DNA of 64,000 nt from Gammaproteobacteria bacterium. GTDB taxonomy: Bacteria > Pseudomonadota > Gammaproteobacteria > Steroidobacterales > JABDMI01. Location: NCBI GenBank assembly GCA_013001575.1, contig JABDMI010000071.1:1171-65170 (forward strand), read 5' to 3'. Below are positions 9,715 to 32,358 of the stretch, piece after piece. Each line of letters starts with the position of its first letter. The stretch's first letter is position 1. The notes beneath the pieces were generated by a model. It made no database searches, had not been told where the DNA came from, and worked only from the letters and a program-made list of their open reading frames with translations. A program made the translations under genes and the position numbers.

Positions 9715-12534
9715 TCAGGCGTAATGGCGCTGCTCACCATCACCATCAACATTGGTGATGCAGCGTTGGCATAATTCCGGATGCTCTGTGGATCGTCCTA
9801 CTTCTGGGCGTCGGTGCCAGCAACGAACGCATTTTTCAGCATCGGTCTTTTTAATCTCTACCTCAAGTTGCTCGCTGCCATTATTCAGTTCCGCGCCAGA
9901 GGTGATAAACACAAAGCGCAATTCGTCACCCAACTGCTCCAAGGCTTTATATTGCTCGCCATTCGCGTTTATGGTTATGTCGGCTTCCAGAGCCGAACCA
10001 ATCACACCGGCCGCGCGTTTTTCTTCGAGTGCTTTTGACACTGTGTCGCGAATATCCAGAATAGTGTCCCAATCCTGTTGGGTAGATTCAAGCTCAGGCA
10101 GCTTGTACCAGGTCTCAAGCAAGACCGATTCGCTGCTCGCACCCAATTCATGCATGGATGACCACACTTCTTCGGCAGTGAAGCTCAATATCGGGGCAAT
10201 CCACCTGACCAGCGCATGCGTAACGTGGTACATCGCGGTCTGGGCCGAACGCCGTGCCTGTGATTTAGTTTGTGTGGTGTATAAACGGTCTTTTAAGATA
10301 TCCAGATAAAAACCGCCAAGATCCTCGCTACAGAATTTATGCAGTTTTTGGTAAATATGGTGAAACTCATAGGTCTCGTAAGCCGTGGTCAATTCTGTGT
10401 GCAATTCACTGGAGCGTTTTAATATCCATTTATCCAATGAGAGCAATTCATCCAGGGCAACGGCATCCTTTTCAAAGTCGAAGCCATGCAAATTACCCAA
10501 CAAGAACCGAATGGTATTGCGAATGCGACGATACGAATCGGCAACACGTTTGAATATTTCATCCGATACCGTGATCTCGCCGCTGTAATCGGCTGACGCA
10601 ACCCATAAACGAATAATGTCAGCACCCAGGGTATTGGCCACTTTTTGTGGTGCGATCACATTACCCAGCGACTTGGACATTTTGCGCCCGTTCTCATCCA
10701 CGGTAAATCCGTGCGTGAGTACCGCTTTGTAAGGGGCCTGATCCTTCATCGCCATACTGGTGAGCAAAGAGGACTGGAACCAGCCACGATGTTGGTCAGA
10801 ACCTTCCAGATACAGATCGGCGATATGCGCTTCCAATCCATGAGTTTTGGTCACACTGTGATGCACAGTACCCGAGTCAAACCACACATCCATAATATCG
10901 GTCGTGCGTTCGTAATTGCCGGTCTCGGCACCCAGTAATTCTTTATCCAGCATCGCAAACCAGGCCTCGATACCACCCGTTTCAACGGCTTGGGCAACCT
11001 TTTCCAGGATGCCTTGGGTATCCGGATGCAACTCGCCGGTTTCATTATGCAGGTACAAGGGAATTGGCACGCCCCAGACGCGCTGGCGCGAGATACACCA
11101 GTCGGGACGACCTTCCACCATGCCATAAATACGCTGCTCACCCCATTCCGGGATCCATTGCACTTTGGGGATCTCTTCCAGGGTGCGTTGGCGCAAGCCG
11201 TTTTGTTCCATGCCCACAAACCATTGCGAGGTAGCACGGAAGATCACGGGCGATTTATGTCGCCAACAATGCGGATAGCTGTGTTCTATTTTTTCAAATT
11301 TAATCAACGCACCAGCATCTTTTAATGCGTCAATAATATTGTCGTTGGCTTTGTATATGTGTTGGCCGGCAAACATTTCGGTAGACGGCAAGTAAACGCC
11401 GTTACCCCCGACCGGATTTTCCAAAGGCAGGTCGTATTTGAGACCCATATTGAAATCGTCATGCCCGTGTCCGGGCGCGGTATGCACGGCACCGGTACCG
11501 GCTTCGGTCGTGACATGCTCACCTAGAATAATTGGCACCTGTCGGGATGCAAACAAGGGGTGTTGCAAAGTAATGTTCTCGAATTTGTCACCGCTTGCTT
11601 GCGCGACCTGCTCAATGGACTCGGCGCCAAAGCGGGCACACACATCCTCGACCATGTCTGTGGCGAGTAATAAATATTCTTTACCCGCATCAGTGGTTAC
11701 GGCTACCAGACTGTATTGTAATTCCGGGTGCAGGGTCACAGCCTGGTTGGCAGGAATGGTCCAGGGCGTGGTCGTCCAGATCGGAACCGAGATTTTGTCA
11801 CTGTCTACGGATTCTATTCCGAAAGCGGTCAGAAACTTTTCAGTGTCAAGCACCGGGAAACGCACATCAATACTGGGGGATACTTTATTTTCGTATTCCA
11901 CTTCGGCTTCAGCCAATGCGGATTGACAATCCAGACACCAATGCACCGGTTTAAAGCCCTTGTACACATGCCCGTTCTCGATGATCTTGCCAAGCGCCCG
12001 GATTTGCGCCGCCTCGAACTTTGGATCCATGGTCAGATAAGGGTTTTCCCAGTCCCCGAGCACGCCAAGGCGTTTAAAATCTTTGCGTTGTCCATCAATC
12101 TGTTTAGCCGCATACTCACGACAGGCTTTGCGAAACGCATTGGCGTCGAGCTTTTGCCCGGGCTTGCCGTGTTTTTTCTCGACTTCACGTTCGATGGGTA
12201 AACCGTGACAATCCCAGCCGGGAATGTACGGTGTATCGAACCCGTCGAGTGAGCGCGACTTGACGATGATATCTTTTAAGATCTTGTTGACGGCATGCCC
12301 GATGTGAATATTGCCATTGGCGTACGGCGGTCCGTCCGTGAAATAGAATTTCGGGCGCCCTTTGGACACTTCACGCATACGCGCGTAGATATTTTGCTCT
12401 TCCCAGGTTTGTAATTGCTTAGGTTCACGCTGGGCCAGATTGGCACGCATCGGAAAAGCGGTTTTGGGAAGATTGATGGTATCTTTGTAGTTCTTCCCGG
12501 ACGCTTGTGCGGGTTTTTTGTCGTCTTTACTCAC
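9715..12534 (-). CDS. ileS: Isoleucine--tRNA ligase
   Basis: 939 aa with class I HIGH (NGNIHIGH) and KMSKS motifs and a C-terminal Zn-finger Cys cluster. Confidence 0.97.
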
Positions 12535-22632: not shown

Positions 22633-24093
22633 ATGACGCCCGAACACATTATTTCACGCACGACTTCCGATGCCGAATGGAAAAGCTTGATCTTTCCGCA
22701 TGATTATCAAAATCCGATACCACAAGACAAGTATCATTTAGTTGTCATCGGCGCGGGTCCCGCCGGTCTGGTAACCGCCATTGGAGCGGCCGGTCTTGGT
22801 GCCAAGGTCGCCTTGATCGAAGCCAAGGCCATGGGCGGCGATTGCCTGAATGTAGGCTGTGTGCCCTCCAAGGCCTTACTGGCGGCGGCAAAAAAAGTAA
22901 AAAACGGAAAACTCAGTCCGGAAAAGGCTTTTGACTGGGTGCATCAGGTACGCGCGAATATTTCGCATCACGACTCGGTCGAGCGTTTTAGTGATGCCGG
23001 GATCGATGTTTTCCTTGGTCGGGGCAAATTTACCGATGCACACACCGTAATGGTCGGTGAGGCACAGCTCAAAGCCAAAGCCTTTGTTATCGCCACGGGC
23101 TCCGAACCCTTTGTACCGCCCATAGCCGGGCTGGAATCTGTTGCAGTACACACCAATGAAAACATTTTTGACCTGCAAACCGCGCCCAAGTCCATCGGAA
23201 TCCTGGGTGGCGGCCCGATCGGATGTGAAATGGCACAAGCCTTTGCGGATCTCGGCAGTGAAGTGCATTTGTTTGAGATGGCCGAACAAATTTTAATTCG
23301 CGAACATCCGGAAGCGGCCAAACTGGTCAGCGACAGTCTTGAACAACGTGGCGTACACTTGCAATTGGGTGAAGCTGTTCGACAACTTGCGCCCTCTGAG
23401 AATGGAATTCTGGTCACGGCCGGCGACACATCGGTGGAGGTTGAATGTGTATTGGCTGCGGTGGGCCGTAAAGCCAATTTCCAGCAATTGGACCTGGATA
23501 AGGCGGGTGTAGAAACTCACAAACGTGGCATTACAGTTGATTCGCATTTTCGCACGTCGCAAAAACACATTTTTGCCATCGGAGATGTGAGCAGCAAATA
23601 TCAATTCACCAATTACGCCGACGCCCAGGCGCGCGCAGTCATTCAAAATGCCCTGTTCCCTGGCAACAGCGCGACCAATACCGACCTATTGCCCTGGTGC
23701 ACTTACACCAAACCGGAAATTGCCCGCATCGGACTGGACGCAGCGGATGCCAAAGAGCGCGGAATTGAAGTGGATACCTATCGCTACGACTGGAAAGACT
23801 CTGACCGTGCCCAAACCGAGGATGACAAGCTTGGTTTTGTCGAAGTGCTAACCAAAAAAGGCAGCGATAAACTGCTTGGCGCAACCATAGTCGGTTCCGA
23901 TGCCGGTGACCAGATCGCCCCGCTTTCAGTCATGCTGTCTACCGGAACCGGATTAAAAGACTTGAGCGCAAGTTTGTTCTGTTACCCGACACGGAGTGAA
24001 TATTTGAAACGCTTATCCGATGCGTTCAATAAAACGCGTTTGACGCCGACATCCGCCAAGCTATTAAAATTTTGGCTCGATAAAACTCTCTAG
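22633..24093 (+). CDS. FAD-dependent pyridine nucleotide-disulfide oxidoreductase (mercuric-reductase/dihydrolipoamide-dehydrogenase-like)
   Basis: GAGPAG FAD motif and redox-active CLNVGCVPSK disulfide. No NmerA domain or C-terminal Cys pair, so it is not a true MerA. Confidence 0.85.
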   Translation: MTPEHIISRTTSDAEWKSLIFPHDYQNPIPQDKYHLVVIGAGPAGLVTAIGAAGLGAKVALIEAKAMGGDCLNVGCVPSKALLAAAKKVKNGKLSPEKAFDWVHQVRANISHHDSVERFSDAGIDVFLGRGKFTDAHTVMVGEAQLKAKAFVIATGSEPFVPPIAGLESVAVHTNENIFDLQTAPKSIGILGGGPIGCEMAQAFADLGSEVHLFEMAEQILIREHPEAAKLVSDSLEQRGVHLQLGEAVRQLAPSENGILVTAGDTSVEVECVLAAVGRKANFQQLDLDKAGVETHKRGITVDSHFRTSQKHIFAIGDVSSKYQFTNYADAQARAVIQNALFPGNSATNTDLLPWCTYTKPEIARIGLDAADAKERGIEVDTYRYDWKDSDRAQTEDDKLGFVEVLTKKGSDKLLGATIVGSDAGDQIAPLSVMLSTGTGLKDLSASLFCYPTRSEYLKRLSDAFNKTRLTPTSAKLLKFWLDKTL

Positions 24094-24094
24094 C

Positions 24095-24778
24095 ATGCGG
24101 GTCAGTATTATTATCCCAACCCTGGACGATAATCCGGCCTTGGTGAATTTATTGCAACAAATTAGCAACTGGCCTAATCAAGCCTATGAAGTGCTGGTCG
24201 TGGATGCAAAGTATGATGAAGCCTGTTCGACAATTTGCGAGCGCTATGCCGCAACGCACATTAGCTTTAATAAAAATCGAGGCGCACAACAAAGGCATGG
24301 CGCCGAAAAAGCCTCTGGCGATGTCCTGTGGTTTTTACACGCCGACGCAACACCATCACCAGACGCCCTGTTGGAAATCCAGACCATTATTGGATCGGGA
24401 GCGATGGGCGGTTTTTTCCGTTTTGCCTTTAATACTGAAACGACTTCATGGACCCAAAAACTCATTTCCGCATTCACCAATTGGCGCAGTAAGCATTTTA
24501 TTGCCTATGGCGATCAAGGAATTTTCGTAGACGCGAAATTTTATGCCACTTGTGGCGGTCATTCTGACCAAGCCCTGTTTGAAGAGGTGGCGCTGATCAG
24601 GGCTTTGCGCAAAAGCGGAAAACTCAAGCCTTCCGACCTCTCGATACGCGTGTCCACACGGCGCTGGGAACAAGACGGCTACTGGAAACGCACCGTACAA
24701 AACCGCTTTTTGGCCCTTGCCTATCTTTTCGGAGTCCAGGCCGATACCCTGGCCAGCTGGTATAAGCCAAAGCGCTAG
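24095..24778 (+). CDS. Family 2 glycosyltransferase, TIGR04283-type (rSAM/selenodomain-associated transferase 2; arsenosugar-cluster associated)
   Basis: MRVSIIIPTLDD GT2 N-terminus, DA..D region, about 227 aa; starts 2 nt after the previous stop. Confidence 0.75.
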   Translation: MRVSIIIPTLDDNPALVNLLQQISNWPNQAYEVLVVDAKYDEACSTICERYAATHISFNKNRGAQQRHGAEKASGDVLWFLHADATPSPDALLEIQTIIGSGAMGGFFRFAFNTETTSWTQKLISAFTNWRSKHFIAYGDQGIFVDAKFYATCGGHSDQALFEEVALIRALRKSGKLKPSDLSIRVSTRRWEQDGYWKRTVQNRFLALAYLFGVQADTLASWYKPKR

Positions 24779-24869
24779 AGCAACAAGGTACAATCGCGGG
24801 TTTCCGCTAACAATTTAGATAGCCTAATTCGATTAGCCAATAATAGTTAATTTAAAAAATACAAATATC

Positions 24870-25967
24870 ATGAATGCAAAAATACTAGAACCCGACCAAC
24901 TTAATGAAACAGACGTCAAAGCCGATGTGCGTGAGTATTACGGCGAGACTTTACAAGGAAGCCAGGACCTGCAAACCAATGCCTGTTGCGACACCGACCA
25001 GATGCCCCGCTACATTAAGGATTGTCTGGCCGATGTGCACGATGAAGTCTTGATGCGTTACTACGGTTGTGGACTGGTCGTACCGACTGAACTGGAAGGC
25101 AAAACCATTCTGGATCTTGGCTGCGGTGCCGGTCGTGATGTGTATGTGCTATCCAAACTGGTTGGCGAGCACGGCAAAGTCATCGGCGTGGACATGACGC
25201 CCGAACAACTGGCCGTGGCGCGCTCGCATCAACAATACCATGCCGACAAATACGGCTATGCCAAAAGCAATGTGGAGTTTCACCAAGGCGATATCGAAAA
25301 ACTGGATGCCTTGCCTATCCCGGATGGCAGCGTTGATATCATCGTGTCTAACTGTGTGATCAATTTGGCCCATGACAAACCCGCCGTATTGCAACAAGCC
25401 TATCGATTATTAAAAGATGGCGGTGAGATGTATTTTTCCGATGTGTATGCAGACCGCCGCATTCCACTGGAATTGCAACAAGACAAGGTTTTGTACGGCG
25501 AATGTTTATCCGGCGCCATGTACTGGAATGATTTCCAGAACTTATCCAAACAATGCGGATTTTTAGATCCTCGCATTGTGGAAGACCGCAGACTGACTAT
25601 TGAAAACCCGGAACTGGAAGAACGAATTGGGCAGATCAAATTCTACTCGGTCACTTATCGATTGTTTAAACTCGCTGGCCTGGAACCGGCTTGTGAAGAC
25701 TATGGTCAATCGGTGGTATACAAAGGTTCTATTCCGCAACAAAAGCATGGCTTTTTTCTGGATGCTCATCATTTGATCGAAACCGGCAAACAGTTTTCGG
25801 TCTGTGGCAATACCTATGACATGTTGAAACTCACACGCTTCTCAGAACATTTTGAGTTTTATGGCGATCGCTCCAGGCATTTTGGTATTTTTCAAGGTTG
25901 CGGCACCGAAGTCCCATATGCCGCGGCGGCCAATGCCGATGCTGAGTCTGGCGGAGACTGTTGTTAA
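24870..25967 (+). CDS. arsM: Arsenite S-adenosylmethionine methyltransferase-like protein
   Basis: Class I SAM motif ILDLGCGAGRD; conserved Cys residues including NACCD near the N-terminus and a C-terminal GGDCC; immediately followed by the radical SAM gene. Confidence 0.8.
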   Translation: MNAKILEPDQLNETDVKADVREYYGETLQGSQDLQTNACCDTDQMPRYIKDCLADVHDEVLMRYYGCGLVVPTELEGKTILDLGCGAGRDVYVLSKLVGEHGKVIGVDMTPEQLAVARSHQQYHADKYGYAKSNVEFHQGDIEKLDALPIPDGSVDIIVSNCVINLAHDKPAVLQQAYRLLKDGGEMYFSDVYADRRIPLELQQDKVLYGECLSGAMYWNDFQNLSKQCGFLDPRIVEDRRLTIENPELEERIGQIKFYSVTYRLFKLAGLEPACEDYGQSVVYKGSIPQQKHGFFLDAHHLIETGKQFSVCGNTYDMLKLTRFSEHFEFYGDRSRHFGIFQGCGTEVPYAAAANADAESGGDCC

Positions 25968-26924
25968 GTGACAATCATGCTGGATAAAGTAAAAAACGAT
26001 CTGATCGACAATTTAAATTCTTCCCGCGAGAAGTCCTGGCACACCACGCCCCTGGGAGACCCCAGAGGTTACATTCGTCCGCGCGAACTCAAAGAGTTAT
26101 GGTTTCATACCGGTACCGCCTGTAATCTGGCTTGTCCGTTTTGCCTGGAAGGGTCTAAACCCGGTGACACAAGACTCGATCGCATCACTCTGGAAGATGT
26201 GAAGCCTTTTGTCGCCGAAGCGCTTGAACTGGATGTGGAAAAATTTTCCTTTACCGGGGGTGAACCGTTTATTGTGAAACAAATGGTCAAAATACTTGAT
26301 CATTGCCTGCAATTTAAACCGTGCATGGTTTTGACCAACGGAACCGAACCTGTTCTAAAACGCCTGGATCAAATTGCCACCTTGCAAAATGCGCCACATG
26401 ACGTCTCTTTTCGGATCAGCATAGATTATCCTGACCAAAAACGGCATGACGCCGGGCGTGGAGAGAATTCCTATGCCCAGGCCTGGCAAGGCTTGCAAGC
26501 CTTGCATCAATTGGGTTTCAATGTGTCACTCGCACGGCAATTGGAAAAAGATGAAAACACCCAAGCCGTTGATAATCAGTATCGTGATATTTGCAAATCG
26601 TATGGTTTGCCGGAAGACATAACGATTGTGGCTTTTCCGGATTTTGCTTTACCCGGTTCAATGCCCGAAGTGCCCTTTGTGACCGAATCTTGCATGACCA
26701 CCTATCAAAATGAAGCCAGCCGCATGGAGTTCATGTGTGCCTTCAGCAAAATGATCATCAAAAAAAATGCCACCATGCGAATTTATGCTTGCACCTTGGT
26801 GGATGACGATGACGCTTATGATCAAGGCACCTCACTCAAACAAAGTCTGATCGAACCCGTTTCGATGAAACACCATCGCTGTTACAGCTGCTTTGCTTAC
26901 GGAGCTTCTTGCTCGGAATCTTAA
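25968..26924 (+). CDS. arsS: Radical SAM/Cys-rich domain protein (ArsS-type, arsenosugar biosynthesis)
   Basis: CNLACPFC radical SAM triad; C-terminal Cys-rich tail HHRCYSCFAYGASCSES. GTG start abuts the arsM stop (alternative ATG at 25977). Confidence 0.8.
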   Translation: MTIMLDKVKNDLIDNLNSSREKSWHTTPLGDPRGYIRPRELKELWFHTGTACNLACPFCLEGSKPGDTRLDRITLEDVKPFVAEALELDVEKFSFTGGEPFIVKQMVKILDHCLQFKPCMVLTNGTEPVLKRLDQIATLQNAPHDVSFRISIDYPDQKRHDAGRGENSYAQAWQGLQALHQLGFNVSLARQLEKDENTQAVDNQYRDICKSYGLPEDITIVAFPDFALPGSMPEVPFVTESCMTTYQNEASRMEFMCAFSKMIIKKNATMRIYACTLVDDDDAYDQGTSLKQSLIEPVSMKHHRCYSCFAYGASCSES

Positions 26925-27062
26925 TGACCACTTTGAGCATCACTTCAGCATTCTTGCTGAGTAAATAAGCACTCACACAATTTTTTAATTTGTTTAGTCA
27001 AACTTCCGAACGGAAATTTGCGCAATTCTCAGTGTTCGATATTCAATACACAATGAAAACAT

Positions 27063-27105
27063 AAAAATACATATATGAATTAATTTAACTCATATATGTA
27101 TTTTT
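27063..27105. repeat. Perfect 16-bp inverted repeat (candidate operator or AT-rich terminator)
   Basis: AAAAATACATATATGA (27063-27078) and TCATATATGTATTTTT (27090-27105), 11-nt spacer. Lies between the arsS stop and the 27175 ORF. Confidence 0.9.
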
Positions 27106-27174
27106 TGGTTATTTATCAGCAAGTTGATGCTAAAAATTAATCAACATTCTGTATTATGTCAAATCGAATTTTAA

Positions 27175-28041
27175 TTGTCTGATAAAAATATTTTGTCATA
27201 TATGTTTAAATTCAACCCAGTTATGACTTTAGACATTTACAGATCAATTATCCGAGCTTGCCCGGTTCTTATGCGGCCAATCATCCGCATTTTGCTGCGT
27301 GCCGGGATCAACTATAAGCAATTTGCAAAAATTACCCGTGAGGTTTTTGTGGATGTTGCTTCTGAAGATTTTGGCATCAGTGGTCGTAAAACCAATATCT
27401 CCAGAGTCGCCATCCTGACCGGAATAAGCCGTAGCGAAGTCACCAAAATACGCAAAAAACAGGAAGAATGTGGCGAGATAGAAATACCGCAAACCGTGAA
27501 TAACGCGGGCCGCTTATTGTCTGGCTGGCACGTAGACAAAGAATTTCTTGACCAAAATGGCAAGCCATTAATTCTCACTGTCGATGGCGACGAACCTAAT
27601 TTCACTTCATTAATGAACAAATATGGTGGTGATATCCCCGCAACCGCCATGCTGAAAGAATTAAAGCAAGTATCGGCGATTGCAATTAATGATTCAGGTG
27701 AAATAAAAGTCTTACAGAGATATTTCATGCCCATGAATTACGACGAAAACAGGATTTTTTCACTGATCGATGATTTTGTTGACCTTGGCAATACTGCACA
27801 CCATAACTTTACTCGTGACATTGATGGTGAATCTCGCTTCCAGGTAAAAGTTACTAACGATTATGTCAGTCTTGCCGCGTTACCAGAGTTCAAAGTCATG
27901 GTCGAAGAAAAATGCACGGCGCTACTCGAAGATTTCGATGACTGGTTAGCAGAACGTGAGATTGACCCTTCAACGGCTATTGCAGAGAAACAACAGATCA
28001 AGTTGGGACTAGGCATGTATTTCATTCAAGAAAATAAATAA
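27175..28041 (+). CDS. Hypothetical protein with predicted N-terminal HTH-like region (possibly DUF6502-like)
   Basis: Long uninterrupted ORF in AT-rich DNA. The segment RKTNISRVAILTGISRSEVTKIRKK looks like a helix-turn-helix. The start is uncertain (TTG 27175 or ATG 27202). The family assignment is from memory only. Confidence 0.6.
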   Translation: MSDKNILSYMFKFNPVMTLDIYRSIIRACPVLMRPIIRILLRAGINYKQFAKITREVFVDVASEDFGISGRKTNISRVAILTGISRSEVTKIRKKQEECGEIEIPQTVNNAGRLLSGWHVDKEFLDQNGKPLILTVDGDEPNFTSLMNKYGGDIPATAMLKELKQVSAIAINDSGEIKVLQRYFMPMNYDENRIFSLIDDFVDLGNTAHHNFTRDIDGESRFQVKVTNDYVSLAALPEFKVMVEEKCTALLEDFDDWLAEREIDPSTAIAEKQQIKLGLGMYFIQENK

Positions 28042-28058
28042 TACTCCAATTCTATATT

Positions 28059-28086
28059 CAAAAATCAAAAATCAACAATCAACTAA
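28059..28086 (+). repeat. Four tandem heptamers (CAAAAAT CAAAAAT CAACAAT CAACTAA) immediately upstream of the lipoprotein SD
   Basis: Read directly from 28059-28086; followed by AAAGGTG (SD-like) and the ATG at 28101. Confidence 0.85.
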
Positions 28087-28100
28087 AAGGTGCTGCAATC

Positions 28101-28391
28101 ATGTTTATCAGAAACAAAAAAACCATCAAAACATTACTAGTTTTATCACTCGCACTTGGCCTGTCCGGCTGTAATTATGAAACTGCGGCATGCATTCAAA
28201 GTGTAATGACCCACAATTCTAAAATAATCAAAAATGGAAAGATTATCAAGAACGGAAAAATTATAAAGAATGGAAAAGCAAGCTCAAATCCAGCTCCATT
28301 ATCTTACAGTTCTTGCATGGCCAGCTCTGAAAGTGGTAACTCAAAAATTATTAAAAACGGAAAAATCATAAAGAATGGAAAAAGTAGATAA
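28101..28391 (+). CDS. Small lipoprotein with five KIIKNG hexapeptide repeats
   Basis: Signal peptide with lipobox LSG/C (Cys24). Repeats KIIKNG x3 and x2, each preceded by NS. SD-like AAGGTG upstream and a strong terminator downstream. All nucleotide differences among the repeats are synonymous. Confidence 0.7.
   Translation: MFIRNKKTIKTLLVLSLALGLSGCNYETAACIQSVMTHNSKIIKNGKIIKNGKIIKNGKASSNPAPLSYSSCMASSESGNSKIIKNGKIIKNGKSR
28221..28274 (+). repeat. Three tandem 18-bp coding repeats (KIIKNG x3)
   Basis: aaaataatcaaaaatgga / aagattatcaagaacgga / aaaattataaagaatgga. Confidence 0.95.
28344..28379 (+). repeat. Two tandem 18-bp coding repeats (KIIKNG x2)
   Basis: aaaattattaaaaacgga / aaaatcataaagaatgga. 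Confidence 0.95.
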
Positions 28392-28463
28392 AGTCTACTG
28401 AATAACTACAGAATACGCTCCGAGATGTCACGACGACAGTCAACATACATCTCAAATCTTTAC

Positions 28464-28487
28464 GGCCCCTTCGGGGGCCGTTTTTTT
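28464..28487 (+). terminator. Rho-independent terminator after the lipoprotein gene
   Basis: GGCCCC-TTCG-GGGGCC hairpin followed by TTTTTTT. Confidence 0.85.
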
Positions 28488-28499
28488 GTAGAGTTTAAG

Positions 28500-29210
28500 T
28501 TAAATTTTAACTTCCAGCGCTTTGCCCAGAAAGCGCATTAACGGCATAGCAGCTTTATAAGTCTCGGAAACTTCAGTAACAATGTCTGGTGATTTGGCTG
28601 TTTTCATGGGCACCGAACGCATCAGGTAAAAACTTTTGCGTTTTAAGTCCTCAATATGCTGATGCTCCTTATCAAATCCTCGCGGTGGCCGGGTTAATCC
28701 ATCTCCTGCAATACCCTCAGGAAAATACTTTTTGATTTTTGCATTCTTTTTAACGTTGCTCCAGGCACGTGGATTATCCACAATGTATTGGCGAATTTTA
28801 TGCAGGGAATCAGAATCAGCCATCCACACGCCCCCGCCAAAAAATACATTGCCCGGCTCTAAATGAAAATAAAACCCGGGTGCGTGGGCGTCTCGCCCCA
28901 GCTCGTGACGAAATTGACAGCCCACATGCTCTTTATAAGGGTCCTTATTTTTGCTAAAACGGGTATCGCGATAAATACGAAACATCGAACCATTATGTGC
29001 CTTGGCCTTGACCAGAATATGCGGTGAGATCTTGTGTAGTTTTGGTTTAAGTGCGTCCATGAATTGCAACACCGGTTCAACCACATCGGATTGATAACGG
29101 GGTTTATTTTCGGTAAACCAGTCGCGATTATTATTCGCTTTCAGATCCTTGATGAACTTGAAAAGTTTTGGTTTGAAACCTTTGAATTCTGACCCATTGT
29201 GATCTGACAT
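28500..29210 (-). CDS. DUF2461 (TIGR02453) family protein
   Basis: Motifs NNNRDWF, FRIYRDTRFSKNKDPYK and GGGVW are typical of this family. Confidence 0.7.
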   Translation of the reverse strand: MSDHNGSEFKGFKPKLFKFIKDLKANNNRDWFTENKPRYQSDVVEPVLQFMDALKPKLHKISPHILVKAKAHNGSMFRIYRDTRFSKNKDPYKEHVGCQFRHELGRDAHAPGFYFHLEPGNVFFGGGVWMADSDSLHKIRQYIVDNPRAWSNVKKNAKIKKYFPEGIAGDGLTRPPRGFDKEHQHIEDLKRKSFYLMRSVPMKTAKSPDIVTEVSETYKAAMPLMRFLGKALEVKI

Positions 29211-29223
29211 ATGTTTTCCGTAT

Positions 29224-29709
29224 TTAATCCAGAGACTTTAAAAACGCCTCGGCCAATTTCTCAACGCCAATGCGATCGGCGTCGGTAAAGCGAGCCACCA
29301 TGGGGCTATCAATATCCAGAACACCCAGTAACTCACCGTTCTTGATCAATGGCACCACTATCTCGGATCGGGTTGCGGCATCACAGGCAATATGGCCGTC
29401 AAATTGATGCACATCTTTGACTACCTGGGATTTTCGTGTGTACGCAGCGGTGCCACAAACGCCTTTGCCAAGTTCAATGCGAATGCACGCCGGCATGCCA
29501 TGAAAAGGCCCCAAAACCAGTTCATTGTTTTTATAAAAATAGAACCCGGCCCAATTCACGTTTTCCAGCGAGTTATAGATCAAGGACGACAAATTTGCCG
29601 CATTCGCGATCATATCGTTTTCATCATGAAACAAGCCCTGCGCCTGCATCAAAAGTGATTCGTAAATGGCAACTTTTCCGATTTTTTTCGGTTTTTCAAT
29701 AACAAACAT
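29224..29709 (-). CDS. GAF domain protein, free methionine-(R)-sulfoxide reductase-like (YebR/MsrC family)
   Basis: About 160 aa single GAF domain with NWAGFYF...LVLGPFHG.PAC..I..GKGVCG pattern. Confidence 0.7.
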   Translation of the reverse strand: MFVIEKPKKIGKVAIYESLLMQAQGLFHDENDMIANAANLSSLIYNSLENVNWAGFYFYKNNELVLGPFHGMPACIRIELGKGVCGTAAYTRKSQVVKDVHQFDGHIACDAATRSEIVVPLIKNGELLGVLDIDSPMVARFTDADRIGVEKLAEAFLKSLD

Positions 29710-29732: not shown

Positions 29733-30719
29733 TTAAATACGCTCTACAGGAAATGCCATTACATCTTTAATCGAGTTTTTTTGCAAGGCCAACATGATCA
29801 AACGATCAACCCCCAAGGCAACCCCCGCACACTCTGGCAAGCCGGAACGCATGGCCTCGAGTAAATACTTGTCTACAGGCATTGGCGATTTTCCAAGTGC
29901 CACACGCCGTTGATTATCCTGTAAAAACCGTTGTGCCAACAATTCGGCATCCTGTACCTCGTCATAGCCATTGGCTATTTCAACGCCCTCCACAAAGACC
30001 TCAAAACGTGCCGCCACATTACGCCCTTGTGCATCTTTCTGGATCTTGGCCAAGGCCGCTTGTGAGGCCGGGTACCCCTGTATAAGCGTAATTCGTCGTG
30101 AAGCTTCTGATGCTGACCTTAGATTTGGGAACACCAAGGTGCTGACCAATAGATCGAGACAAGAACTAAAGTCATCGGTCAGACCACCCGGAATATCAAT
30201 GTGTTTCTGATTCAGCACTTCTTGAATTTCACTCACACTGGTATCAAACACATCTATGCCAGTGTACTCATGCACAACATCCGCATAGCTATAGTGTTGA
30301 ACCTCAACATCACAATCCATGATCTCACGGGCCAGTTCTATCACTTCATGCGCAAGATCCTTGATCGAAAACCCAATTCGATACCACTCCAGCATAGTGA
30401 ATTCGGGATTGTGCTTTTCGCCACTTTCACCCTGCCTGAATACCGGGCCAAGATAGAAACAATCCCCGATGCCAGCTGCCAACAGGCGTTTCATCGGGTA
30501 TTCGGGCGAGGTGTGTAAAAACGTTTTTCCGGACAAAAGTTTTACCGGAATACTGTCGATATGGACTTCGGTCACACTCGATGAACTCAGGCATGGAACC
30601 TGCACTTCGAGCACATTGCGCGCAGCAAAAAAAGCACGAATATTTTGCAATATCCGCGCTCTGTGTTTAAGGGTTTGCAGCGACGCCGTGGGTCGCCAAA
30701 GCTCAGACTCGAATGTCAT
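29733..30719 (-). CDS. epmA: EF-P lysine34 beta-lysyltransferase (PoxA/GenX)
   Basis: Truncated class II LysRS-like catalytic domain (FTMLEWY, GVALGVDRL); directly downstream of efp. Confidence 0.9.
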   Translation of the reverse strand: MTFESELWRPTASLQTLKHRARILQNIRAFFAARNVLEVQVPCLSSSSVTEVHIDSIPVKLLSGKTFLHTSPEYPMKRLLAAGIGDCFYLGPVFRQGESGEKHNPEFTMLEWYRIGFSIKDLAHEVIELAREIMDCDVEVQHYSYADVVHEYTGIDVFDTSVSEIQEVLNQKHIDIPGGLTDDFSSCLDLLVSTLVFPNLRSASEASRRITLIQGYPASQAALAKIQKDAQGRNVAARFEVFVEGVEIANGYDEVQDAELLAQRFLQDNQRRVALGKSPMPVDKYLLEAMRSGLPECAGVALGVDRLIMLALQKNSIKDVMAFPVERI

Positions 30720-30722
30720 GCC

Positions 30723-31292
30723 TCAAGATTTGGCTCGCGAAGAATATTCACCGCTGCGCGTATCCACACGGATCACTTCACCTTCATCCACAAACAAGGG
30801 AACTTGCACAACCGCGCCGGTTTCCAGGGTAGCGGGTTTGGAGCCGCCTTGTGCGGTGTCACCCTTCAGTCCGGGATCCGTTTGGGTAATTTTGAGCTCG
30901 ACAAAATTGGGAGGCACGACGGTGATCGGGTTTCCATTCCACAAGGTAACGGTACACATGTCTTCTTCGAGTAACCATTTGGCCGCATCAGCAACAGCAT
31001 TTTCATCGGCACCAAATTGTTCAAATGTATTTGGGTCCATGAAATGATAAAACTCACCATCGTTATACAAATATTGCATATCGGTTTCCATTACATCAGC
31101 CGCTTCCACCGATTCACCAGATCTAAAGGTTTTTTCAATTACGCGTCCATTTTTCAGGTTGCGCACCCGCACGCGACTGAAGGCTTGACCTTTTCCAGGC
31201 TTAACAAAGGTGTTTTCTACGATTGTATATGGGTCGCCGTCGAGCATGATCTTGAGACCACCCTTGAATTCATTGGTACTATACGTAGCCAT
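30723..31292 (-). CDS. efp: Elongation factor P
   Basis: [19 protein letters not shown]...VKPGKGQAF (modifiable Lys in the PGKGQ loop). Start at the internal ATG with GGAG SD; the ORF-track N-terminal extension is rejected. Confidence 0.95.
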
Positions 31293-31323
31293 TATTTCTC
31301 CACATGACAGATTGAAAAAAGCC

Positions 31324-32358
31324 ATGATAACGCCTTTAAGCAATAAACGCCTGATAAATAACACTGCTTGGTCTAAAAAACATACCACAGACTGGCAAGC
31401 CCAGATGCGCGATGCGGTGACAGAACCAACAATGCTTTTAGATTTATTGGATATACCTCATGCATTACTAACTAAAGCCAACCAGGCGCATGCCTTGTTT
31501 CCGCTGAAAGTTCCGAAGGCGTATGTGTCACGCATGCAAAAAGGGAATATCAATGACCCGCTGTTACAACAGGTTCTACCGCTGGGTACGGAGACCGACG
31601 AGCATCCAGATTTCACCCAAGACCCGGTGGCCGACCTGCAACACAATCCTGTCCCGGGTATTGTGCATAAGTATTCGGGTCGGGTCCTAATGATTACGAC
31701 CGGGGCGTGTGCCGTGCATTGTCGCTATTGCTTTCGTCGCAATTTTCCCTACTCGGAACAAAGTGCCGCGCGTCAAGGCTGGCAAGGTGCACTGGATTAC
31801 ATTCGAGCTGACAAAAGTATTCACGAAGTGATCTTGTCGGGTGGCGACCCCTTATCTTTAAGTAATAACAAACTGGATAATTTGTTCACTGAACTTGATA
31901 ACATCACGCACCTGAAAACAATCCGTTTGCACACACGTCAACCCATCGTATTACCGGATCGTATTGATACCGGATTCTTGCAATTAATTTCTCGCCAGAC
32001 TAAAAACCTCGTCATGGTCTTGCACGCAAATCATGCCAATGAAATTGATGATACGGTGCGGGCTGTGTGTGAGCAATTACTCGCGCAAGGTGTAACTATG
32101 TTGAATCAGTCTGTATTGCTCAGAAATATTAATGATGAACCAGAGACATTGATTGAATTAAGTCATGCCTTGTTTAGTTGCGGGGTTTTGCCCTATTATC
32201 TGAATTTACTGGACCAGGTCAGAGGGGCAAGCCATTTTGCGGTATGTCAGACCCAAGCCAAAGAAATCCACACCAGTATGCAAAAAATTCTTCCTGGATA
32301 TCTGGTTCCCAAATTGGTCAAGGATTCACCCACAATCCCATATAAAACCTGGCTTTAA
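31324..32358 (+). CDS. epmB: EF-P beta-lysylation protein EpmB (lysine 2,3-aminomutase-like radical SAM)
   Basis: [11 protein letters not shown] radical SAM motif. The N-terminus lines up with my recollection of E. coli EpmB when started at 31324. Divergent from efp. Confidence 0.9.

Follow-up and report, generated by a model that had tools for sequence, protein, structure and literature searches.

The stretch of DNA analysed here (the window) comprises 64,000 nucleotides (nt) of contig JABDMI010000071.1 from a gammaproteobacterium of the Steroidobacterales, and the gene in question lies on its forward strand at positions 28101-28391, where a short open reading frame (ORF) specifies a lipoprotein signal followed by five repeats of the hexapeptide KIIKNG. 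On the sequence evidence this ORF is a genuine gene for a small lipoprotein, because orthologous loci retain its reading frame, its Shine-Dalgarno (SD)-like sequence, its lipobox and its cysteine scaffold, and the protein represents a previously undescribed, very small and unannotated family. What is described here is an orphan gene with good support; it does not amount to a new mechanism. The interpretation preferred for it, to which slightly better than even chances are given, is that of an exported lipoprotein encoded by the downstream gene of a two-gene operon, the upstream gene of which encodes a DUF6502 protein, and whose repeat units act multivalently.

The lipoprotein gene and its signals

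The precursor, MFIRNKKTIKTLLVLSLALGLSG/CNYETAACIQSVMTHNS(KIIKNG)3KASSNPAPLSYSSCMASSESGNS(KIIKNG)2KSR, is encoded by 28101-28391 (+) and begins with what the original prediction had called a textbook lipoprotein signal with the lipobox LSG/C. A PROSITE PS51257-type rule (K or R within residues 1-7, an uncharged h-region, a lipobox of the form [LIVMFWSTAG]2-[LIVMFYSTAGCQ]-[AGS]-C and the cysteine at positions 15-35) agrees, accepting the protein with VLSLALGLSGC and Cys24, and it accepts 10 of 10 small orthologues as well, while the Pfam model LPAM_1 gives the signal peptide of the window protein 16.4 bits, just under the cutoff of 20. The mature protein of 73 residues contains three cysteines and has a net charge of +11. 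Across the whole ORF region the lipoprotein frame is the only open one. Furthermore, exactly this protein has been called as a gene on seven public contigs (NCBI, Logan), and the allele is identical at the DNA level in the four contigs compared.

The AAGGTG predicted upstream as an SD-like sequence is present at 28087-28092, and a purine-rich SD-like sequence stands at the equivalent place in 10 of 10 loci with a small partner, that is, a small lipoprotein gene in the same position; the TCAAAAA tract of the leader (28058-28082) is without conservation among the orthologues. The strong terminator placed at 28464-28487 was essentially right, the hairpin lying at 28462-28481 and the T-run ending at 28487, and this is the sole terminator-like site detected in 27000-29500; none was detected between DUF6502 and the lipoprotein gene in the window. 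Of the proposal that these signals mark a real transcription unit, the signals stand, and the gene probably does not form a unit by itself but is the second one of a DUF6502 operon.

Repeat units within the array

Five KIIKNG units had been predicted at 28221-28274 and 28344-28379, and both the coordinates and the peptide are borne out: the units occupy 28221-28238, 28239-28256, 28257-28274, 28344-28361 and 28362-28379, and the peptide is identical in all five. Tandem Repeats Finder reports a period of 18 with 3.2 and 2.3 copies and 82% matches. The degenerate back-translated pattern AARATHATHAARAAYGG has its exact matches at the five unit sites; when up to one mismatch is allowed, six matches are found in the window against 0.09 expected from shuffles, the sixth, at 11972, being unrelated. 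In addition, the segments 28238-28290 and 28343-28395 share 81% identity.

The divergence of the units at the DNA level was said to be synonymous only, and this is what is found. Among the units, variation is seen at five of the six third-codon positions and at not one of the 12 first and second positions; at least seven substitutions are needed, all of them synonymous, and since 18.5% of random single-base changes in a unit of the window are synonymous, the probability of an all-synonymous pattern is about 7e-6. The mean pairwise proportion of synonymous differences (pS) is about 0.9, that of non-synonymous differences is zero, and the longest perfect repeat in the array measures 15 nt.

The n-region of the signal peptide also resembles a repeat unit, positions 28105-28129 having 72-76% similarity to the units as DNA, and the n-region of one related locus, L003 (3181-3285), is likewise unit-like (NKIIKNTIK). 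In K/I/N-rich sequence this likeness may be due to chance.

Orthologous small partners

Lipoprotein queries matched nothing, so the collection of homologues was anchored on the upstream neighbour DUF6502, and the loci so obtained are designated by L numbers. Where the DUF6502 protein is 67-78% identical to that of the window, a small lipoprotein gene follows immediately 3', in frame and with an SD-like sequence and a lipobox, at every locus; its product continues with C-N-Y-[EDN] and has a second cysteine 7-8 residues further on and, in every complete case, a third cysteine in the middle of the protein. The units in this clade are 4 x KIIVNG (L001), 7 x KITGPG plus KTTGSG (L002), KITVSG and KITVAG (L008), 9 or 8 x KITGSG (L018 and L019, respectively) and KITGSG again in the incomplete protein of the closest relative (L020, 78% DUF6502 identity), while the small partner of L003 is incomplete at the contig end. 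A metagenome scan gave one locus, also incomplete.

Where DUF6502 identity drops to 46-52%, small lipoproteins with three cysteines remain the partners. Those of L010 and L011, with 71 and 68 residues, have a single C-terminal motif copy, V[TS]G[AS]G-IVI, and no tandem repeat, and that of L012, with 132 residues, has LGVDRGGQP[VI]TT (LGVDRGGQPVTT, 12 residues) 4.5 times and a final copy after the third cysteine. Each mature small partner contains exactly three cysteines, arranged as Cys(lipid)-x5-7-Cys...Cys. Positional orthologues at nine loci besides the window retain the frame, the lipobox, an SD-like sequence and this scaffold, as does every small partner that is complete, over DUF6502 identities of 46-100%, so the expectation that orthologues would keep frame and lipobox is borne out at the complete loci; the number of repeats varies by locus.

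The synonymous-only pattern recurs in the orthologous arrays, with five synonymous against no other changes in L001 and 13 against one V/I position in L012, where the synonymous excess has a probability of about 3e-7. The earlier argument for selection on the peptide, as opposed to a spurious ORF in AT-rich DNA, is upheld by this recurrence and by the frame kept in the orthologues. These observations also bear on the idea that the 18-bp repeats work as DNA, for instance as iteron-like sites to which the neighbouring winged-helix protein would bind, or belong to a spurious ORF. The tandem repeats do adjoin the gene for a protein with two winged-helix-like modules, and in L002 further frames are open through its stop-free repeats. 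However, all of the variation falls on the third codon positions of a single frame, lineages that keep the protein architecture have unrelated repeat DNA, L010 and L011 do without any tandem repeat, and the palindrome that is associated with DUF6502, CATATATG, lies upstream of the gene and outside the array. The spurious-ORF and DNA-level explanations are largely refuted by these facts, and their probability is put close to nil.

Turnover of the units and selection

The tandem units of the mature part have six residues and the form K-I-x-x-x-G, and their peptide is uniform within a genome and different between related genomes. The type KITG[SP]G looks ancestral, because the closest relative L020 has KITGSG and so do L018 and L019. 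From such a unit, KIIKNG requires several amino-acid changes in every copy, which makes independent parallel change implausible, and concerted evolution, that is, amplification of a variant unit, is the economical explanation of the switch. Turnover is seen directly in L018 and L019, whose DUF6502 proteins are identical: along 2.5 kb the two are distinguished solely by a single 18-nt unit (2654-2671 of L018) and two substitutions, and each of these differences falls within block 1. Units thus appear to turn over by amplification, after which purifying selection would hold them, and the family would be a clean natural example of arrays that turn over and are then selected for uniformity of their units.

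The original prediction had also offered avoidance of slippage as a reason for the synonymous differences. This is plausible: a lineage with near-identical units changes its copy number (L018 against L019), the diversified window allele is invariant in four contigs, and perfect repeats reach 41-47 nt in the L018/L019 arrays against the maximum of 15 nt in the window. The shorter perfect repeats and the invariant allele fit the view that the window array has been stabilised by synonymous diversification.

Between orthologues, the non-synonymous divergence (dN) is 0.04-0.12 for the neighbouring radical S-adenosylmethionine (SAM) protein, 0.11-0.25 for DUF6502 and 0.40-0.81 for the lipoprotein, which is the fastest-evolving gene of the neighbourhood, DUF6502 itself evolving faster than its neighbours. 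The check proposed earlier, the ratio of dN to synonymous divergence (dN/dS) on the repeats, gives zero non-synonymous differences among the units of the window and is unreliable between orthologues, where synonymous sites are saturated and the ratios are indicative only.

Such a fast-changing array might belong to a variable surface shield, similar to the Vlp/Vsa lipoproteins of Mycoplasma, in which exposed repeats vary under pressure from phages or grazers and have no specific ligand. The lipobox followed by a tandem-repeat mature region, the rapid evolution of the gene, the confinement of the differences between two strains (L018, L019) to the array, copy number included, and the degenerate units at the array edges (KTTGSG in L002, KISASE in L008) all speak for it. 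Mycoplasma Vlp/Vsa/Vsp proteins, too, combine a lipobox with a mature region made up largely of short tandem peptide repeats and diverge rapidly; of the change in repeat number between close strains that they also show, L018 against L019 is the one instance seen here. The window gene, however, has a Gram-negative host, six-residue units and a tie to a regulator-like gene, it is single-copy within the 64-kb window with no multigene family there, and no homopolymer phase switch was seen upstream at its promoter. In addition, the window allele is not variable among the contigs compared, and the strong purifying selection on the units within the array, whose peptides are perfectly identical despite saturated synonymous divergence, points to a sequence-specific constraint beyond bulk. 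A shield of this kind without any ligand is considered unlikely.

Proposed structure and role

For the multivalent lipoprotein preferred here, the following course of events may be envisaged. A variant unit would be amplified via slippage or unequal recombination, per-unit purifying selection would follow and synonymous diversification would stabilise the array. Processing by Lgt and LspA would yield the lipid-anchored protein of 73 residues, with a probable location in the outer membrane given the Asn at +2 (E. coli rule). A disulfide between Cys31 and Cys72, presumably of the DsbA type, would close a loop around repeat block 1 and leave block 2 as a C-terminal tail, and the units would form short beta-strands connected by Asn-Gly turns. 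In the AlphaFold2 (AF2) model of the lipoprotein, a short strand falls on each unit with Asn-Gly at the turns, and the predicted local distance difference test (pLDDT) score there is 62-66. The best guess for the structure is, accordingly, an envelope-tethered, disulfide-stapled array of beta-hairpin units, as far as the model can suggest. As to function, an envelope-tethered multivalent binder or shield, the identical units of which contact a repetitive, fast-changing envelope polymer or partner, is put forward tentatively, as a possibility well short of even odds, the gene, the operon and the evolution of the array being well supported by comparison. Multivalent contact with such a partner would explain why units match within each genome and differ between lineages, and unit uniformity with wholesale replacement between lineages points to a co-evolving repetitive partner, which could be sought.

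Several points weigh against this interpretation. The single-sequence AF2 model of the lipoprotein has a mean pLDDT of 53, that is, low confidence. The net charge is lineage-specific: it lies between +3 and +11 for members of the close clade and between -5 and -8 for L010-L012, and as a charge ranging from +11 to -8 is not conserved, a purely electrostatic binding mechanism cannot be family-wide; the cationic amphipathic repeat that had been proposed is cationic in the close clade only, the distant partners being acidic. L010, L011 and L012 are tied to the window protein by position and scaffold, with no significant sequence similarity. No match to the window protein was found among 5.8 billion proteins, whether the single sequence or a three-sequence alignment was used, nor among 1.84 billion representative proteins; these large searches miss even the identical sequence recorded on seven contigs, presumably because it is short and of low complexity. 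Moreover, the Foldseek comparison of the DUF6502 model with the PDB gave nothing significant (best E=0.2), and DNA binding by DUF6502 is deduced from weak fold matches plus palindromes.

Comparison with known proteins gives likeness in parts. Pfam, NCBIfam and PADLOC have nothing above cutoff for the lipoprotein, and the peptide-string matches in the literature are unrelated bacteriocins. Sequence searches of the PDB gave only sub-significant matches to BLIP-II and pneumolysin: the RCC1-type hairpins of BLIP-II and choline-binding repeats share a local strand-[ND]G-strand pattern with the units ("IIKNGKII" is like "ALKNGKVIAWG"), but at E=0.04 and with no significant individual stretch, and the units of the window are much shorter and without the aromatic residues of those modules. 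LptM, OsmB, the entericidins and Lpp are of a similar size and consist of a lipid anchor with a short mature part that is simple or largely unstructured; the window protein, however, has neither a glycine zipper nor a heptad coiled coil, and a conserved C-terminal Lys is lacking. Because this Lys is lacking, an Lpp-like peptidoglycan anchor was rejected. With the LptM model (NF047847; cutoff 27.7) the score is 14.6 bits, over residues 7-24, the signal peptide, only, and in place of the CG(L/Q)KGPLY-type mature segment of LptM the mature N-terminus reads CNYETAAC. A left-handed or bactofilin-type beta-helix was rejected too: the beta-helix families of Pfam (hexapeptide-repeat or bactofilin-type) have no match to the window protein, the L008 protein scores 16.9 bits with Bactofilin (cutoff 27.9), and five units would give fewer than two turns.

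Table 1. Features of the DUF6502-lipoprotein region of the window
Feature	Position	Strand	Remarks
Two CATATATG palindromes, candidate operator	27070-27077, 27091-27098	+	21 nt apart, upstream of DUF6502
Third CATATATG box	27197-27204	+	contains ATG 27202
DUF6502 gene (PF20112), putative winged-helix DNA-binding regulator	27202-28041	+	first gene of the probable operon; Pfam E=2e-47
A-rich TCAAAAA x3.6 tract	28058-28082	+	within the 59-nt intergenic leader
SD-like AAGGTG	28087-28092	+	8 nt ahead of the ATG
Small lipoprotein gene	28101-28391	+	96 codons; 96-residue precursor, 73-residue mature protein
Signal peptide (residues 1-23) and codon of lipidation Cys24	28101-28172	+	lipobox L-S-G-C; Cys24 codon 28170-28172
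Cys31 codon	28191-28193	+	putative disulfide partner of Cys72
Repeat block 1	28221-28277	+	3 x KIIKNG and trailing K; between Cys31 and Cys72
Cys72 codon	28314-28316	+	putative disulfide partner of Cys31
Repeat block 2	28344-28382	+	2 x KIIKNG and trailing K; apparently a segmental duplicate of the block 1 end
Conserved element of the 3' untranslated region	28408-28487	+	single-stranded 5' part containing ACGCUCCGAG; hairpin 1; linker AAAUCUUU; terminator hairpin 28462-28481; U-run

DUF6502 and its putative operator

An exported partner lies directly 3' of DUF6502 in 14 of 15 distinct loci, with intergenic gaps of -1 to 59 nt. The lone exception is L017 (3001-5387), where one DUF6502 paralogue follows another, an exported partner is missing between the two, and the contig ends just past a new ATG. 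The flanks of these loci vary and include an arsenosugar-type cluster, a TonB-dependent receptor, a Crp-like regulator, ThiF/BNR and CBM9. The start of DUF6502 is given inconsistently, as TTG 27175 in the list of ORFs and in 256-residue and 272-residue versions in public records (27175-27271); ATG 27202 (MFKFNPVMTLD...) is likely the true start and is preferred because of the alignment of orthologues.

The AF2 model of DUF6502, built with 37 sequences, has a pLDDT of 83 and shows two helix-turn-helix (HTH) or winged-helix-like modules and long C-terminal helices, and the top weak Foldseek matches are mostly winged-helix regulators (MarR, DtxR, CapW). Neither Pfam nor the model gave a match to a tetratricopeptide repeat (TPR) family. 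A search of the literature gave no paper naming DUF6502.

The window has three copies of the palindrome CATATATG against 0.94 expected, always at the DUF6502 promoter or start codon, and its columns at 27070-27098 are invariant in the alignment of seven loci. In 137 kb of non-redundant sequence, 14 of 14 exact copies lie at most 260 nt upstream of a DUF6502 start, and the distant GC-rich locus L016 is included. The start-codon box is found at -5 in the window, L001, L008 and L019 and with one mismatch in L002, L003, L009, L012 and L013, and one-mismatch versions stand at -26 or -5 in L009, L012, L013 and L014. Together with the weak fold matches, the palindromes support DUF6502 as a putative autoregulated DNA-binding protein, which would bind CATATATG at its own promoter and start codon and thereby control both genes. 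The exported partner in nearly all loci, the putative palindromic operator and a conserved RNA element in the 3' untranslated region (3'UTR) provide the first usable context for DUF6502.

Large DUF5666 partners

At 36-45% DUF6502 identity (L009, L013, L014/L015, L016), the partner is a protein of 485-527 residues with four to six DUF5666 domains and, in most cases, a lipobox. With DUF5666 (PF18914, gathering score 27 bits) these large partners score 118-206 bits, whereas the window protein and the small partners have no match. In the literature, DUF5666 appears only in incidental listings in gene or protein tables. The large partners resemble the window protein in occupying the slot directly after DUF6502, in the same orientation, with a signal peptide that usually has a lipobox. 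On the other hand, the window protein has no DUF5666 domain and no significant profile similarity to them and is five times shorter, and its Cys pair was not noticed in the large partners, though no systematic count was made.

The mature N-terminus of the large partners reads GIDRLG, GIDAGG, GIDRGG or SIDRSG, the repeat of the small L012 partner is a GVDRGG version of this motif, and inside the partner of L013 (3813-5285, 490 residues) about 12 GIDAGGID units form an array that repeats the N-terminal GIDAGG of that protein. The L013 array represents an independent amplification of this N-terminal motif. A short x-[IV]-[DTS/I]-x-x-G motif that seems prone to amplification recurs in DUF6502 partners, the form x-[IV]-[DT]-x-x-G (GIDRGG, GIDAGG, SIDRSG) being amplified about 12-fold in L013 and fivefold in the small L012 protein. 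When the small partner was compared by hhalign with the N-terminal region of DUF6502-linked DUF5666 proteins, the probability was 2.1% (E=0.022). Small and large partners are best regarded as positional counterparts only, homology not being demonstrable.

These distant loci also bear on the possibility of a peptide-signal cassette, in which DUF6502 would be a cytoplasmic receptor-regulator and the exported pro-peptide would be cut into identical hexapeptides (KIIKNG), re-imported and sensed, as in the RRNPP-like systems Rap-Phr and AimR-AimP. As with the pro-peptides Phr and AimP, a small exported gene follows directly 3' of an HTH-type gene, and the units are pherotype-like, being identical within and different between genomes; in some Phr precursors the signal peptide is present in multiple copies. 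The strong per-unit purifying selection inside the array with fast divergence between genomes, and the rapid evolution of DUF6502 relative to its neighbours, would suit such a system as well. However, the partners of distant DUF6502 genes are large, multi-domain, structural proteins, unlike pro-peptides; the export signal is a lipobox rather than a site for signal peptidase I; a folded product, with a probable disulfide scaffold, is suggested by the conserved Cys pair; DUF6502 is without a TPR-type peptide-binding domain; and no linked protease or importer is present. Furthermore, no covariation of receptor and peptide is visible, since L019 and L020 share KITGSG at 74% DUF6502 identity and the units of L002 and L008 differ at 82%. 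A cassette of this kind is thought very improbable. A broader version, in which DUF6502 and the lipoprotein form a peptide-based recognition pair of Gram-negative bacteria, with identical lineage-specific hexapeptides released or tethered and co-evolving with the receptor and the 3'UTR RNA adding a small RNA (sRNA) output, is improbable too; if true, it would explain the joint switch of all units per genome under strict per-unit purifying selection.

The conserved 3'UTR element

Downstream of the lipoprotein gene, an element of 80 nt is more conserved across the orthologous loci than the coding sequence (CDS), and it is single-copy in the window. Hairpin 1 is formed by 28422-28428 paired with 28447-28453, and the identical two-hairpin fold, with a hairpin 1 of 7-8 bp and a U-rich linker, is found in six loci; L011 has one compensatory pair change (GAGATGC/GCATCTC) and L018 a G-U pair. 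As the MAFFT alignment of the 3'UTRs misplaces two 3' arms, individual folds were used instead of covariation statistics. No Rfam family reaches its gathering score, the best match (22.8 bits against 48) covering the terminator hairpin only. The architecture of the element resembles that of Hfq-type 3'UTR-derived sRNAs, and it may be such an sRNA.

The good conservation of this element, in comparison with the CDS and its very low amino-acid conservation, could be taken to mean that the lipoprotein gene is the decaying remnant of an ancestral DUF5666 lipoprotein gene, perhaps still expressed, with the repeats as low-complexity filler and DUF6502 and the 3' RNA element as the conserved parts. 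Its position equals that of the DUF5666 partner in the distant loci, and the similar x-I-D-x-x-G motif at the mature N-terminus of the large partners would be in keeping with such an origin. Against this, frame, lipobox, SD-like sequence and three-Cys scaffold are kept over a wide range of DUF6502 identity, several independent arrays (the window and L012 among them) show purifying selection on the peptide, and homology with DUF5666 is unsupported both by Pfam and by hhalign (probability 2%). Little probability is accordingly left to the remnant, and the multivalent lipoprotein is preferred to it.

Genomic surroundings

Downstream of the lipoprotein gene lies a compact cluster for the lysylation of elongation factor P (EF-P), with EpmA at 29733-30719 (-), EF-P at 30723-31295 (-) and EpmB at about 31330-32358 (+). 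A link of the lipoprotein to these genes was rejected, as the neighbourhood is not kept in L002, L008 and L011. A link to the radical SAM protein in the manner of ribosomally synthesized and post-translationally modified peptides was also rejected, since this protein is a member of the arsenosugar-type cluster and is missing from the small-partner locus L012 and from the distant DUF6502 loci.

The arsenosugar-type cluster itself occupies 24095-26924. Its TIGR04283 arsenosugar-biosynthesis glycosyltransferase scores above cutoff, while the ArsM-like methyltransferase and the radical SAM protein that come next are both below their equivalog cutoffs. It is preceded by a flavoprotein similar to MerA and lipoamide dehydrogenase at 22633-24093, and its synteny with DUF6502 extends to loci of about 50% identity.

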